A program made the position numbers and the translations under genes. A DNA stretch of 32,000 nt from Candidatus Saccharimonadota bacterium (GTDB lineage Bacteria; Patescibacteriota; Gracilibacteria; BD1-5; UBA6164): positions 960,001-992,000 of the forward strand of contig OZ245922.1 of assembly GCA_965229705.1 (NCBI GenBank), written 5' to 3'. The notes beneath the pieces are model-generated. The model did not search any database. It saw only the letters and a list, made by a program, of their open reading frames with translations, and was not told the origin of the DNA. Each line of letters starts with the position of its first letter. Within the stretch, counting starts at the first letter, position 1. Shown piece after piece: positions 15,106-28,715 of this stretch.

Positions 15106-16776
15106 ATGAGATGGCTTAATGAACACTCAAAACTTTTTCTGGAAAGAGGATATTTGGTAGAATGACAAACGGCACAAAAACGACTTCGAGATATTGCAGA
15201 AAATGCAGAAAAAATACTCAAAAAACCAGGATTTGCAGATACATTTTATGGATATATGGAAAAAGGGTATTACTCTCTTTCATCTCCTGTTTGGGCAAAC
15301 TTTGGTCTTGATAGAGGTCTTCCGATTTCTTGTTTTGGTTCATATATTTGAGATGATATGTGAAGTATCCTTCATACGCACGCAGAGGTAGGAATGATGA
15401 CGAAGTATGGAGGAGGAACAACAGGATATTTTTGAGATTTGCGTCCAAGATGAGCAGAGATAAAAGACAACGGACATTCTTCTGGAGCAGTACACTTTAT
15501 GAAACTTTTTGATTCGTTGATAGATGTGGTATCTCAGGGAGCTGTAAGACGATGAACATTTGCTACCTATCTTCCTCTTGAACATGCAGATGCAGATGAG
15601 TTTTTGGATATTCGTTCAGATGGAAACCCGATTCAGCATATCAATTTTGCCGTAACGGTCACAGATCAGTGGCTCAATGAAATGGTTGATGGAGATGAAG
15701 AAAAACGAAAACTGTGGGCAAAAGTCATTCAACGAAGGAGTGAGTGAGGTCAGCCATATATTTTCTTTACTGATAATGTCAATAATCATACGGTTGATAC
15801 ATATAAAGACCACAACAAGCGTATTCATATGAGTAATGTGTGTAGCGAGATCATGCTTCCAACCGATGAAAATGAGTCATTTGTTTGCTGTCTTTCTTCT
15901 ATGAATGTTGAGTATTTTGATGAGTGGAAAGATACAGATGCTGTGGAGATTATGACCTATTTTCTTGATGCCGTGATGCAGGAGTTTATTGAAAAACTTG
16001 AAGCACTCAGAGATAGCGATGACCTGCAGAAGCAGAGAGCCTTTGGGTTCATGGAGAGAGCATATAACTTTGCATACAATCATAGAGCTCTTGGTCTTGG
16101 GATATTTTGATGGCACTCATACTTGCAATCAAAGATGATTCCTTTTGAACATCCAGATGCGATGCAGCTCAATAAAACGATTTTTCAGTTTCTTCACGAG
16201 AAATCTTACAAAGCGTCAACGCAAATGGCAAAAGAGTATGGAGAAGCTCCACTCACACAAGGATATGGAAGAAGAAATACGACCCTGCTTGCAGTTGCTC
16301 CAACAACCTCATCAGCGTTTATCATTGGTCAAGCATCTCAATCTATCGAGCCGTGGTGGTCTAACTGTTATGTAAAAGATCTTGCAAAGATGAAAGTCAC
16401 AATTAAAAACAAATATCTTGAAGCACTTTTAGAAGAGAAGGGAAAAAATGACAGAGATACATGGAACTCGATTCGTGATAATGATGGATCTGTACGACAT
16501 CTCGATTTTCTCTCAGATCTTGAAAAAGATGTGTTTAAGACTTTTGCGGAAATCAATCAGTTTGTGATTGTAGCACAAGCAGCTGATCGTCAGCAATATA
16601 TTGATCAAGGACAGTCACTCAATCTGATGGTTCATCCAGATACACCGGTAAAAGATATCAATGCTCTTTACATAGATGCATGGAAGCAAGGAATAAAAAC
16701 GCTTTATTATCAGCATAGTAAGTCTGCAGCCCAAGAACTTTCGAGAAAGATTAGTTGCGTTGGGTGTGAAGCGTAA
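15106..16776 (+). CDS. nrdA: class I ribonucleotide reductase alpha subunit, short form without an ATP-cone
   Basis: ATG 15106; the frame runs through about 9 TGA codons into track ORFs 15829 and 16123. It has the catalytic NVCSEIMLP (NxCxE), PISCFGS (the Cys of the redox pair), the KTLYYQHS Tyr-Tyr pathway pair, and a C-terminal CVGCEA redox tail. The N-terminus starts directly in the catalytic barrel with no cone. Confidence 0.9.
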
Positions 16777-25002: not shown

Positions 25003-26508
25003 ATGTCACAAGATGTATTACAGTCAATTATCTCTGAAATAGAGGCAAAGATAGATTCTACTGATTTTTCTCCTGAGATTGAAAATGTTGGAGAAGTTTT
25101 TTATCTCTGAGATGGAGTTGCAAAAGTATCAGGACTAAGAGGAGCAAAATACAATGAAGTCTTGGAGTTTGATTCTGGAGCAACAGGAGTAGCTCTCAAT
25201 CTTGAGGATCACTTTGTTGGTGTAGTGATTCTCTCGGGTTTTGCTAGTGTAAAAGAGGGAGAAAAAGTTACTTCTACCGGGAAAACACTTGAGGTACCAG
25301 TTGGAAAGGAGATGATAGGAAGAGTTGTTGATGCTCTTGGAAGACCGATCGATGGACTTTGAGAGATAGCTACAAAGGAGCATTATCCAGTAGAGAGAAC
25401 CGCAGAATGAGTAATGGCTCGTAAGTCGGTTCATGAACCTATGGAGACAGGTATCAAGGCGGTTGATGCGCTCGTACCTATTGGACGAGGACAGCGTGAA
25501 CTTATTATTGGTGATAGGCAAACAGGAAAAACACAGGTAGCAATAGATACGATTCTCAACCAAAAAGGTCAAAATATGATGTGTGTGTATGTTGCTATTG
25601 GTCAAAAAGAAGGAAAAGTATCACGAACAGTAGAAGAACTCCGAAAGAGAGGGGCTATGGACTACACTATTGTTGTTTCAGCAGGGGCTTCAGAACCAGC
25701 AGCAATGCAGTATCTTGCTCCATATACAGGGTGTGCTATGGCTGAGTACTTTATGTACAACAGTCAGCACGCACTTATTATTTATGATGATCTCTCAAAA
25801 CAGGCAACGGCGTATCGTGAAATGTCTCTCCTCCTCAGAAGACCACCAGGACGAGAGGCGTATCCGGGAGATGTATTTTTTCTTCACTCACGACTTTTGG
25901 AAAGAGCTGCCAAACTCTCAGATGAAAAAGGTGCTGGATCTATGACAGCGCTTCCGATTATTGAAACGCAAGCAGGTGATGTATCTGCTTATATCCCGAC
26001 GAATGTGATTTCTATTACTGATGGGCAGATATTTCTCGACTCAAACCTCTTTAACTCAGGACAAAAACCAGCGATATCAGTAGGTCTTTCAGTTTCACGA
26101 GTTGGATGATCAGCGCAGATGAAAGCCATGAAAAAAAATTCTGGAACACTCAAACTTGATCTTGCTCAGTATCGTGAACTTGCAGCATTTTCACAATTTG
26201 CTTCTGATCTTGATGAGGCAACGAGAGCCCAGCTAGACAGAGGAGCTCGTATGATGGAACTTCTCAAACAAGGGCTTAATGCTCCAGTACCAGTACCAAA
26301 ACAGGTATGTGCACTCTATGCGGGAGGAAAAGGATATCTTGATGGTATTTCAGTAGAAAAGGTTTTGAAATTTGAAGAAGATTTACACGCTGCTCTTGAT
26401 CAGGATAAGAAAGTACTTGAGACGCTTGCAAATGAGAAAAATCTCTCAGAAAATACAGAAAAAGATCTGGTAAAGATCATAGAAAAAGTAGTTGAGTTAC
26501 ATAAGTAA
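25003..26508 (+). CDS. atpA: ATP synthase F1 alpha subunit
   Basis: ATG 25003. It has Walker A GDRQTGKT and [25 protein letters not shown]. The TGA at 26107-26109 falls in SVSRVG-G-SAQ. It joins track ORFs 25162, 25414 and 26119. Confidence 0.95.
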
Positions 26509-26513
26509 AAAAC

Positions 26514-26645
26514 ATGTTCAATTCTGAAAAAGGAATCGTTGATTTTGACATAGATGGTAATGTTGTAGAGATAGAAATGTTTTGAGTAAAGAAGACTTTT
26601 GCGAAAAATAATATTTTTCTTGATCAAAAAGAATTAATAGCATAA
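26514..26645 (+). CDS. DUF2283-like mini-ORF (43 aa), possibly a remnant
   Basis: The peptide MFNSEKGIVDFDIDGNVVEIEMFGVKKTFAKNNIFLDQKELIA has a core vDfD.dGnvvgiEi that resembles DUF2283 small proteins. It starts 6 nt after the atpA stop. Confidence 0.3.
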
Positions 26646-26666
26646 ATGTAAACTTTTTACTTTTAT

Positions 26667-26698
26667 CTTTTAACCTTAGACTTTCCACTTTAAACTTT
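26667..26698 (+). repeat. left copy of a perfect 32-nt direct repeat bracketing the two TA cassettes
   Basis: CTTTTAACCTTAGACTTTCCACTTTAAACTTT is identical at 26667-26698 and 27727-27758; I checked this base by base. Confidence 0.9.
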
Positions 26699-26760
26699 CC
26701 ACTATTGAGAAATACAAAAAAAATATATAATAGAGGCAGTATTTTCTAAAAAAAATTATG
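26695..26760 (+). promoter_or_regulatory. conserved promoter/operator block of TA cassette 1
   Basis: CTTTCCACTATTGAGAAATAC-A8-TATATAATAGAGGCAGTATTTTCTAAAAAAAATTATG contains TTGAGA (26705-26710) and TATAAT (26726-26731). It is nearly identical to 27234-27300. Confidence 0.55.
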
Positions 26761-26955
26761 GCAACAATACAAGTTGAGTTACCTGAACAAGTACAAGATA
26801 CATTTAAAATATCAGAAGAGCCAATAACAACAGAAGACTTTCTGACTCGTCTTGAACAAGCAGAAGAAGACATGTGGATTGATATAGAGTTAGATGAACC
26901 AATATCTATGCAAGAATTTTCCAGGATGCTAAAAAAAGATATTTATGGTTCCTAA
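26758..26955 (+). CDS. putative antitoxin 1 (small acidic protein, family not recognised)
   Basis: A 65-aa acidic ORF, MATIQVELPEQVQDTF...DEPISMQEFSRMLKKDIYGS. Its 3' end overlaps the RelE/ParE toxin start by 11 nt, which is classic type II TA architecture. Confidence 0.6.
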   Translation: MATIQVELPEQVQDTFKISEEPITTEDFLTRLEQAEEDMWIDIELDEPISMQEFSRMLKKDIYGS

Positions 26956-27184
26956 ATGGCTGAAAATTATTCAAAAATCACCATATGAATCTCAACTACA
27001 AAAAGTTTCTGAGAATATCGTTTTAGGGGATTTTCGATGATTAGATATTAAGAAGATACGATGAAAGTTTTGAATATATAGGTGTAGAGTGTGAGACTAT
27101 AGAATTATTTTTGAGGAGAGAGTAAATGGTGAATACAAAATTCTCCACATAGGAGGAAGAGGAGATATTTACAAAAATATATAG
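26945..27184 (+). CDS. RelE/ParE superfamily toxin 1
   Basis: With 4 TGA read as Gly the sequence is MVPKWLKIIQKSPYESQLQKVSENIVLGDFRGLDIKKIRGKFGIYRCRVGDYRIIFEERVNGEYKILHIGGRGDIYKNI. The yRxRvGdYRiiF...RgdiY signature of RelE/ParE toxins is clear, and the Gly of RVGDYR is a TGA. Confidence 0.8.
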
Positions 27185-27233
27185 TATACTTTCCACTTTA
27201 AACTTTCTACTTTAAACATCTTTTAACTTTTCG

Positions 27234-27300
27234 CTTTCCACTATTGAGAAATACAAAAAAAGTATATAATAGAGACAGTATTTTCTAAAAAGAAATTATG
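27234..27300 (+). promoter_or_regulatory. conserved promoter/operator block of TA cassette 2
   Basis: It is the same block as 26695-26760, differing by 3 substitutions and one single-base indel. It contains TTGAGA (27244-27249) and TATAAT (27265-27270). Confidence 0.55.
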
Positions 27301-27492
27301 GTTGTAATGGAGGTAGAGGTTCCACAAAAAATAGCAGAATCGTTTTTTGAATCAAAACAAAGAATTAGCTATGCTGACTTGAGGAAAAAAGAACAAGAAA
27401 TCGAGGCGACAGAGTGGACGGACGTTATGTTTGATGAGCCTGTCCCTATAGAAGAATTTAGTGTCTACCTCAAAAAACAAATACATGGTTAA
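27298..27492 (+). CDS. putative antitoxin 2 (paralog of antitoxin 1)
   Basis: The sequence MVVMEVEVPQKIAESF...DEPVPIEEFSVYLKKQIHG shares the VxVPxxI...W.D...DEP...EFS..LKK.I.G skeleton with antitoxin 1 but is otherwise diverged. Confidence 0.6.
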   Translation: MVVMEVEVPQKIAESFFESKQRISYADLRKKEQEIEATEWTDVMFDEPVPIEEFSVYLKKQIHG

Positions 27493-27722
27493 AAAATGGC
27501 AGAAAACGATAAAAAAAGCTCCGAATAAAGAAAAAATTAATGAAGTAATTGATAAGATATTTAGTACAAGATTTTCAGGAATTAGATATCGATATACTTC
27601 ATGGAAAAGAAAAGCACTTTCGTTGTAGAATATGAGATTTTAGAATCATATTTTCCAAGAAAAATGGAAAAATAGAGATAGAGGGAGCCGGACATAGATG
27701 AGATGTTTACAAAAATATATAG
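27485..27722 (+). pseudogene. RelE/ParE toxin 2, disrupted by a +1 frameshift
   Basis: The frame from the ATG at 27485 gives MVKKWQKTIKKAPNKEKINEVIDKIFSTR and then runs into a TAG. The conserved C-terminal part DFQELDIDILHGKEKHFRCRIGDFRIIFSKKNGKIEIEGAGHRGDVYKNI is in the +1 frame from 27570 to the TAG at 27720. Relative to toxin 1 there is one extra base near 27566-27570. Confidence 0.7.
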
Positions 27723-27726
27723 TATA

Positions 27727-27758
27727 CTTTTAACCTTAGACTTTCCACTTTAAACTTT
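27727..27758 (+). repeat. right copy of the perfect 32-nt direct repeat
   Basis: It is identical to 26667-26698 and lies immediately after the toxin 2 stop. Confidence 0.9.
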
Positions 27759-27806
27759 TAACTTGTAACTTTAAGCTTTAAACTTTTAACTTATAACTTG
27801 TAACTT
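27752..27806 (+). repeat. tandem TAAC/TAAAC-rich repeat directly upstream of atpG
   Basis: AAACTTTTAACTTGTAACTT (27752-27771) and AAACTTTTAACTTATAACTT (27780-27799) have a 28-nt period. An extra GTAACTT follows, and the repeat ends 3 nt before the atpG GTG. Confidence 0.75.
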
Positions 27807-27809
27807 CCC

Positions 27810-28715
27810 GTGGCAAACGCAAAAGAAATAGGACGAAAAATTTGAAGTATTAAAAATACCTCAAAAATCACCAAAGCAATGGAACTCATCTCAACAGTGA
27901 AGATGAAGAAAGCTCAAGACCTTGCAATGCAAAAAAAAGACTTTGTGATAGAAATGCTGAAAGTATTTTCTCGTATTGAAGGTTTTTTAGAAGATTTTTC
28001 ATATTTTCAAAAATATGAGAGTCAGAAAACTCTGGGGATCATTATCACTTCAAATAAAGGTTTATGTGGAGGGTATAATGTAAATGTTTTAAAAAAAGTA
28101 CATGAGTACACAAAACAAAATCCAGATGAAGATATGGACTATATCAGTCTTGGGAAAAAAGCAGCAGCCTTTGTAACTCGAACAGGAAATACGCTTCATG
28201 CAGATTTTTCTCCAGAGTATACAGATAATATTGATACACGCTTTGTAAAATCTCTCACGCAGACTATGTATGATGCCTATCTTTCTGGAAAATATGGGAA
28301 GGTTGTAGTGTTTTATAACTACTATGTCAACTCTATTAAACAAATTCCGGTTGCCCGAGAGTTTCTTCCTATTGATGCTCAGGGAGTACGAAACTATCTT
28401 GAGAGCATTATTGATGACGAAAAGGTTCTTGAAGATATAGGAAGCGAGACTATAGATTATATTATAGAACCAAGCTCAGAGTCTATTGCTGATGATCTTA
28501 TACCAATGATTCTTGATATGATGTTTTATGATATTTTACTTCAGGCAAAAGCCTCAGAACACTCAGCAAGAATGGTTGCGATGAAAGCAGCAAAAGACAA
28601 TTCTCAAAAAATTGCGGATATGCTCACACTGCAGTTTAATAAAGCCCGCCAAGGACTCATTACTAGAGAAGTATCTGAGATAGTCGCAGGTGTTGAATCT
28701 CTCAAGGATACCTAA
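27810..28715 (+). CDS. atpG: ATP synthase F1 gamma subunit (GTG start)
   Basis: GTG at 27810 gives (M)[35 protein letters not shown], the conserved gamma N-terminus, in frame with track ORF 27879..28715. The C-terminus is ITREVSEIVAGVESL. Confidence 0.9.

Follow-up and report, generated by a model that had tools for sequence, protein, structure and literature searches.

In chromosomal type II toxin–antitoxin (TA) modules of the RelE/ParE superfamily, each gene pair has a promoter of its own and the toxin ends in an RGDIYK motif. In archaeal aRelE/aRelB (1WMI) and M. jannaschii RelBE3 (3BPQ), a small upstream antitoxin gene overlaps a gene for a toxin of about 79 aa. Concerted evolution of tandem paralogues, in turn, leaves a signature of its own: inside the tract, two paralogues of one genome resemble each other more than orthologues of different genomes do, and beyond its sharp boundaries the tree follows orthology. 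Here we describe a locus in which both meet, namely two tandem RelE/ParE-like TA cassettes in a 32,000-nt stretch of DNA (the window) from Candidatus Saccharimonadota bacterium, a member of the Gracilibacteria (contig OZ245922.1, positions 960,001 to 992,000 of the forward strand). The cassettes show the module traits named above, but their antitoxin is very acidic and outside the described families, their toxin genes use TGA as a glycine codon, and they lie inside the F1Fo ATP-synthase operon, between atpA and atpG. They also show the signature of concerted evolution, with the difference that homogenisation concerns the non-coding promoter and the extreme 3′ end, whereas the TA coding cores have diverged by about 40%. 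In our view, the cassette ends have probably evolved in concert through homologous recombination, with purifying selection on the promoter in addition.

In the following, c1 and c2 denote cassettes 1 and 2 of this genome (G000); G labels otherwise stand for genomes and L labels for loci or contigs. A scan of genome contigs for related cassettes gave only G009, G010 and one distant match in Solidesulfovibrio. A metagenome scan returned 80 loci, all of them at most 45% identical over the full toxin length and hence generic RelE/ParE; higher metagenome percentages came from short partial matches only. A search with an antitoxin profile added three useful contigs.

Near-identical ends and diverged interiors of the two cassettes

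Three substitutions and a single 1-nt indel separate the stretches that lead up to the two antitoxin start codons (26695–26761 and 27234–27301); directly after the ATG the identity falls to about 55%. Between c1 and c2, nucleotide identity amounts to 94.5% in the 54-nt core of this block, as against 58–59% in the antitoxin coding sequence (CDS) and 63–64% in the toxin CDS. At the opposite end of the cassettes, c1 and c2 do not differ over the final 23 nt of the toxin gene and the bases that come next. A TAC codon, the TAG stop and the sequence TATACT in this 3′ part are common to c1 and c2 only and occur in no orthologue. We submitted the 497-column cassette alignment (61.8% identity) to a permutation test; the best high-identity segment was reached in none of 20000 permutations, and the 28-nt perfect run in 5 of 20000.

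Blocks and coding regions moreover follow different trees. In its coding identity, c1 is closest to L130 (79–82%) and then to G009 (66–70%), and c2 is closest to G010 and L133 (69–70%). The maximum-likelihood tree of the coding regions accordingly separates c1, L130 and G009 (type 1) from c2, G010 and L133 (type 2) with an ultrafast bootstrap value of 100 and a branch of 0.65 substitutions per site. Since L133 falls outside the other hosts in the atpG tree, both types are older than these host species. The blocks, by contrast, group by genome and not by cassette type: the 94.5% identity of c1 and c2 stands against 87.9% for c1–L130, 86.2% for c2–L130, 82.5% for G009–G010, 75.4% for c2–G010 and 68.3% for c2–L133, and orthologous blocks in other species are only 64–88% identical. 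At nine positions of the block, c2 has the same base as c1 and a different one from both type-2 orthologues; the reverse is found at two. In approximately unbiased (AU) tests, the block alignment rejected the by-type trees (p = 0.006), and the coding alignment rejected the by-genome trees (p ≤ 0.0003, log-likelihood differences of 92–100). Synonymous sites are saturated in every pair (pS 0.53–0.83), and the 5.5% divergence of the blocks must therefore be recent. From dN/dS values of about 0.1–0.2 it follows that the coding regions are under purifying selection.

The locus runs from atpA over a DUF2283 remnant, RelE/ParE cassette 1 and cassette 2 (its toxin gene frameshifted) to atpG, and comprises the following features:

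25003–26508, plus strand: atpA (F1 alpha), a 501-aa open reading frame (ORF) under code table 25 that is broken by in-frame TGA under table 11
26514–26645, plus strand: truncated remnant of a DUF2283 gene, 43 codons (PF10049, E = 0.002, C-terminal half of the model only)
26649–26703, plus strand: heptamer array 1, about 8 CTTTNNA units (tandem repeat finder, period 7/14), with the 9-mer CTTTCCACT at 26681 and 26695 and the left copy of a 32-mer (26667–26698)
26704–26757, plus strand: putative promoter/leader block 1, with -35 TTGAGA at 26705–26710, a 15-nt spacer, -10 TATAAT at 26726–26731 and a leader of about 20 nt without Shine-Dalgarno site
26758–26955, plus strand: antitoxin 1, type 1, 65 aa, pI 4.05, a table 25 ORF without Pfam or NCBIfam family
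26945–27184, plus strand: toxin 1, RelE/ParE superfamily by PF05016 and profile matches, 79 aa, intact, four TGA (Gly) codons
27162–27192, plus strand: homogenised 3′ tract of cassette 1 (toxin 1 end, TAG stop, TATACT), with its partner at 27700–27730
27188–27242, plus strand: heptamer array 2, with the 9-mer at 27189 and 27234 and a variant, CTTTCTACT, at 27203
27243–27297, plus strand: putative promoter/leader block 2, with -35 at 27244–27249 and -10 at 27265–27270, 94.5% identical to block 1
27298–27492, plus strand: antitoxin 2, type 2, 64 aa, intact, a table 25 ORF
27485–27722, plus strand: toxin 2, type 2, with a +1 frameshift near 27565; each frame segment resembles intact orthologues
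27726–27809, plus strand: heptamer array 3, about 12 units, reaching the GTG of atpG, with the right copy of the 32-mer (27727–27758) and the 9-mer at 27741
27810–28715, plus strand: atpG (F1 gamma), GTG start, a table 25 ORF

From its sequence and conservation, we infer that the block is the cassette's own sigma-70-type promoter followed by a short leader. All six distinct cassettes share the hexamers TTGA(G/A)(A/G) and TATAAT at a spacing of 15–16 nt, and in all six the A/T-rich leader of about 20–27 nt contains an invariant TATTTT; a Shine-Dalgarno site is found in L133 only. A promoter consensus scanner gave matches on the minus strand only, not above those in shuffled sequences; it accepts spacers of 16–18 nt only and missed the plus-strand promoter because of the 15-nt spacer. 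Orthologous blocks evolve more slowly than synonymous sites (c1 and L130 differ by 12% in the block, at a pS of 0.58–0.65), and purifying selection on the promoter contributes to block conservation.

A preliminary description of the window, made from the letters alone, had put the 66 nt or so before the antitoxin start codons at about 94% identity and the coding sequences far below; both statements agree with the alignments. It had offered three possible causes. Gene conversion is borne out by the block tree that follows the genome, the coding tree that follows the type, and their reciprocal rejection. Selection on a shared promoter stands as a partial cause, given the hexamers common to six cassettes and the slow change of the block, but does not account for 94.5% identity when orthologous blocks reach only 64–88%. 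A recombination adapter is conceivable, the constant ends being the kind of homology fit for exchange; a dedicated recombinase does not lie nearby. RecA is present in the genome. The sole tyrosine recombinase (PF00589) is encoded at 451.8 kb, 535 kb away, the four serine recombinases all lie more than 370 kb away, and we found no site-specific recombinase adjoining the arrays. Only RecA-type homology is indicated for any exchange.

By profile and gene layout, the cassettes would be type II TA modules of the RelE/ParE superfamily. Toxin 1 matches PF05016 marginally (24.0 bits at a cut-off of 23, E = 6.1e-5), and the frame-B segment of toxin 2 stays under this cut-off with 17.6 bits. A profile built from three toxins matches archaeal RelE 1WMI (E = 2.9e-6) and RelE3 3BPQ (6.2e-5). 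Antitoxin and toxin genes overlap by 11 nt in cassette 1 (26945–26955) and by 8 nt in cassette 2 (27485–27492), and the same overlapping layout with the antitoxin gene in front is seen in G009, G010, L130 and L133. The antitoxin family gave no sequence match in Pfam, NCBIfam or PDB. Among the first 30 residues of antitoxin 1, seven are acidic and one is basic. An AlphaFold 2 (AF2) model from seven antitoxin sequences, of low confidence (pLDDT 67.5), features two helices and no ribbon-helix-helix (RHH) fold. Both frame segments of toxin 2 differ from intact orthologues by a pN of 0.21–0.31, like intact pairs among themselves. This equal similarity argues that the break in toxin 2 is either recent or a sequencing error; antitoxin 2 is intact.

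The genome is a single contig of 1,006,762 bp with 35% G+C, and code table 25 (TGA = Gly) is needed to read the ORFs at this locus correctly. We rejected a reading with table 11: atpA and the toxins are intact only with TGA as glycine. For annotation this means that the toxin genes become visible under table 25 only. No intrinsic terminator is predicted between atpA and atpG, and cassette transcripts may therefore continue into atpG. An Rfam search of block and arrays gave no match at E ≤ 1. A 28-nt similarity between the 5′ regions of toxin 1 and atpG was judged to be a chance match in AT-rich sequence.

A separate observation concerns the 5′ end of the antitoxin gene. Its first 27 nt (ATGACAACAATAGAGGTAGAAATACCA) are identical in the type-1 cassette of L130 (469–495) and the type-2 cassette of G010 (L006, reverse complement, 1557–1583), and nearly identical in G009 too (L007, 1557–1583), at an identity of only about 78% between the atpG genes of the hosts. 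This may be a second tract of recombination or constraint.

The CTTTNNA heptamer arrays

All three cassette flanks are tandem arrays of the 7-nt unit CTTTNNA, and CTTTCCACT is CTTTCCA plus the first two bases of the following unit. Direct reading located the 9-mer on the plus strand at 26681, 26695, 27189, 27234 and 27741, with an unrelated minus-strand copy at 15923. These six occurrences in the window compare with 0.41 expected, and none of 100 shuffles reached six; in the whole genome, both strands together hold 18 copies, five of them at this locus. The last base of array 1 or 2 stands 1–2 nt before the -35 hexamer that follows. Arrays 1 and 3 have the perfect 32-mer in common, and array 2 is apparently a hybrid that resembles the array 3 head in its left part and the array 1 tail in its right part.

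Arrays of this kind are not confined to the cassettes. In-register arrays of at least four units occur at eight sites in the genome, compared with 0–1 in shuffled sequences. Five arrays end 0–12 nt before a start codon, namely those of ileS, rpsR, sufU, a small gene upstream of tuf, and atpG; before ileS, rpsR, sufU and atpG there is no room for a promoter at the array. Three of the roughly eight arrays flank the inserted TA cassettes and two, in mirror orientation, flank another insert between sufS and sufU, a four-helix-bundle gene of the 23S rRNA intervening sequence (IVS) type (PF05635, E = 1.4e-35). A search of 12 genomes of the same genus brought up no array of at least five units. Scattered heptamer arrays are found in other genera, before dnaB, a pilin gene, a rpsA-like gene and tRNA genes. 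Around five further loci of the ParE family in this genome, the 600 nt on either side hold no array, and the orthologous cassettes in G009, G010, L130 and L133 have none upstream of the -35 hexamer. In L130 and L131, only three to four heptamer units follow the toxin, and the two runs differ from each other.

We thus read CTTTCCACT as one variant of a CTTTNNA minisatellite, apparently without a cassette-specific role. This minisatellite fills short spacers before start codons; among the sampled genomes of the genus, no other was found to carry it. The preliminary description had listed the five plus-strand copies and the variant CTTTCTACT correctly and had found the placement of the 9-mer to be as expected of an antitoxin operator or a recombinase core site. 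As a conserved element of either kind it is not supported, because the arrays precede unrelated genes and are missing both upstream of the -35 hexamers of the orthologous cassettes and at the five ParE loci. Antitoxin 1, with its pI of 4.05 and no detectable DNA-binding fold, does not favour the operator either. The genome-wide search for the 32-mer and the block sequences that the description had proposed gave no copy beyond this locus in 1.007 Mb. In annotation, the repeated 9-mer should hence not be read as an operator.

Heptamer arrays before genes have been described previously. The TAACTGA repeats of marine Beggiatoaceae, Cyanobacteria and Bacteroidetes are intergenic heptamer direct repeats before start codons (MacGregor 2015, PMC4679880). 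According to that account, these are likewise tandem 7-nt direct repeats a few nucleotides from start codons, those of essential genes included, with a bias to the sense strand and a patchy phylogenetic distribution. The present unit is CTTTNNA with degenerate positions instead of TAACTGA, and it forms only about eight arrays. By these likenesses, the arrays here belong to an already described kind of repeat, with a different word.

Some observations from the surroundings of the other arrays may be added. In the sufS–sufU insert, the PF05635 gene lies at G000 690238–690808 (L002 2739–3309), and the bracketing arrays are of the CTTTNNN kind. At G000 415740–415830 (L001 3741–3830), two short heptamer arrays of opposite orientation stand back to back upstream of a threonine-dehydratase-like gene, adjoining a GC-rich hairpin. 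Just upstream of the ileS array, a repeat that is about 130 nt long, carries a GGAGG/CCTCC hairpin and resembles miniature inverted-repeat transposable elements surrounds a tRNA gene and a 163-aa orphan ORF in three or more copies (L001 5570–6760, G000 about 417.6–418.8 kb).

The atpA–atpG slot across the genus

In 8 of the 12 same-genus genomes with atpG found, the gap between atpA and atpG is only 5–16 nt. In the remaining cases described here the slot holds accessory genes of varied kinds. This genome carries the DUF2283 remnant and two TA cassettes; G009 has one type-1 cassette (L132 is a G009 strain), and G010 has a small ORF and one type-2 cassette. The contigs L130 and L131 hold a 52-aa gene, an intact DUF2283 gene and a type-1 cassette, L133 holds DUF805 and a type-2 cassette, and in G005 an unrelated 307-aa gene occupies the slot. 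The spacer is thus a general insertion hot spot in this Gracilibacteria genus. As to the cargo unrelated to TA modules, the G005 gene is secreted or lipoprotein-like (L016 568–1491), the DUF805 gene lies at L133 1842–2285, and the small ORF of G010 encodes 60 aa and is membrane-like (L006 1470–1652, minus strand). In this recoded lineage of the candidate phyla radiation (CPR), accessory genes have repeatedly settled in a tiny spacer of the essential ATP-synthase operon.

The slot probably was in use before the TA cassettes arrived or alongside them. An intact 66-aa orthologue of the DUF2283 remnant lies at the matching place in L130 (E = 6.9e-16; L130 59–408 together with its 52-aa partner), which suggests that an older small gene pair occupied it.

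Further traces of past events are found at the cassette flanks in other hosts. In G009, a copy of atpG codons 1–12 stands left of the cassette (L007 1471–1504), and the last 33 nt of atpA are copied to its right (2018–2050). In G010, the toxin tail and the atpG start fall within a direct repeat about 62 nt long (L006, minus strand). These duplicated flanks suggest either the integration of a circle by a single crossover or the decay of a tandem array, and we take them as likely footprints of homology-driven integration or duplication, not of a transposase. The cassettes c1 and L130 are more alike (79–82% of nucleotides, tree distance 0.28) than the atpG genes of their hosts (76%, distance 0.47), which hints at cassette transfer after the host split or at unequal evolutionary rates.

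Origin of the uniform ends and related systems

If the cassette ends evolve in concert, they would be copied onto each other by gene conversion or by unequal exchange between the tandem units. The copied stretches would comprise, at the front, promoter and leader as far as the antitoxin ATG and, at the back, the final 25 nt or so of the toxin gene plus the bases following it. Exchange would probably begin in the flanking heptamer arrays. These are likely start points of misaligned pairing because both tracts abut arrays, arrays 1 and 3 share the 32-mer, and array 2 has the look of a joint. If a tract extended into the coding region, a mismatched toxin–antitoxin pair would result, which might be selected against; in any case, about 40% divergence would be expected to block strand exchange in the interiors. 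Purifying selection on the promoter would add to the likeness of the blocks.

The same pattern could have arisen by exchange of cassettes between genomes. The two types would then be alternative alleles of one slot, with the constant head and tail and the atp ends serving as homology arms for incoming DNA of related strains or species, and the tandem would stem from unequal crossover between alleles. This would agree with G009 having only type 1 and G010 only type 2 at one and the same slot, with the duplicated flanks of both, as expected of single-crossover circle integration or of lost tandem units, with the excess similarity of c1 and L130 over the atpG genes of their hosts, and with array 2 resembling a joint of the array 3 head and the array 1 tail. 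However, the search gave no donor whose type-2 interior comes close to identity, c2 being only about 70% identical to its nearest relatives, and conversion inside a long-standing tandem pair gives an identical pattern. We regard such exchange as possible but not likely. Selection alone, by which both promoters would be held alike to bind one regulator (a shared operator of cross-regulating antitoxins, or a host factor), seems very unlikely to us. The block indeed changes much more slowly than synonymous sites between orthologues, and the hexamers and the leader TATTTT are invariant. Yet orthologous blocks differ by 12–36%, c1 and c2 share nine derived columns, the homogenised 3′ tract includes a synonymous codon, the stop codon and post-stop bases, and the antitoxins that would have to share an operator are only 34% identical, N-termini included. 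As shared derived states and a homogenised stop codon exceed its reach, selection cannot be the whole cause of block identity.

In another scenario, the heptamer arrays would be protein-binding operators or centromere-like sites that take part in TA regulation. A precedent is given by the operators and parS sites of pSM19035, linked to epsilon-zeta, at which the RHH protein omega/ParB binds at least four contiguous heptads (PMC9499535). There as here, contiguous 7-bp repeats stand beside the promoters of a TA-linked operon; at this locus they abut each -35, and the antitoxin N-terminus has a beta-strand-like start (TTIEVEIP). In contrast to the omega system, the heptads are not specific to the TA locus, being present also before ileS, rpsR, sufU and atpG without room for a promoter, and they are kept neither in orthologous cassettes nor at the other ParE loci. 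No RHH regulator is recognisable here: the acidic first 30 residues of antitoxin 1, the missing RHH family match and the low-confidence AF2 model without this fold all speak against one, and we consider a regulatory function of this kind improbable. Finally, the tandem might be an assembly artefact in which two strain alleles with shared flanks were joined. A metagenome or enrichment source is probable, and the shared ends are repeats. But array 2 holds CTTTCTACTTTAAACATCTTTTAACTTTTCG, a sequence that arrays 1 and 3 both lack, one contig of 1.007 Mb makes up the whole genome, and alleles with shared flanks would normally assemble as a bubble and not in tandem. An artefact is therefore hardly to be expected.

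Several points weigh against concerted evolution of the cassette ends, or at least limit it. Only six distinct cassettes were found, and with a block of 54–63 columns the AU result of p = 0.006 rests on few sites. Conversion within the genome and exchange between strains or species are indistinguishable on these genomes. The likeness of the heptamers beside the -35 to omega repressor operators means that they may have a protein-binding role here. The scanner did not call a plus-strand promoter, owing to the 15-nt spacer, and the promoter activity of the blocks is deduced from sequence features. Moreover, the tandem arrangement and the toxin 2 frameshift are taken from the assembly alone.

With these reservations, concerted evolution would make the locus a clean natural example of two selfish gene pairs that retain distinct protein-coding cores under uniform regulatory ends. 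Uniform ends and distinct cores are expected if a toxin combined with the wrong antitoxin is lethal, and the locus would lend itself to testing the limits that TA specificity sets to recombination. In the literature searched on conversion of TA promoters and on TA systems of Gracilibacteria, we found no direct description of such a case, an absence of match that is no proof of novelty.

We may further speculate about how the slot works without a dedicated recombinase. TA cassettes with constant head and tail might move between genomes as circles, integrate by plain homology through the atp ends or the arrays, and stack in tandem as different types; conversion would then keep the ends uniform, and selection for cognate pairing would keep the interiors apart. 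We rate this extended scheme as rather unlikely. If it were true, cassette promoters pointing into atpG may also feed transcription of the essential atp genes behind them, and the insert would then not be easily lost.

Small cassettes in one slot are known from other systems. Integrons collect gene cassettes, and orphan toxin/immunity arrays such as those of cdiA-CT/cdiI and Rhs have a constant recombination handle; TA cassettes with their own promoters occur in Vibrio superintegrons. Like these, the present locus features small cassettes in a row at one slot, with constant ends and variable interiors. It differs in that no imperfect inverted repeat of the attC type brackets the cassettes, the flanks being direct heptamer arrays, that no IntI-type tyrosine recombinase adjoins these arrays (the single PF00589 match is the distant one mentioned above), and that there is no constant coding handle. 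Any exchange here would rest on plain homology. The locus is thus composed of known kinds of parts, namely a TA module of the RelE/ParE superfamily, ends that evolve in concert, and heptamer repeats in leaders; it is unusual for bringing them together within the ATP-synthase operon of a CPR bacterium with a changed genetic code.

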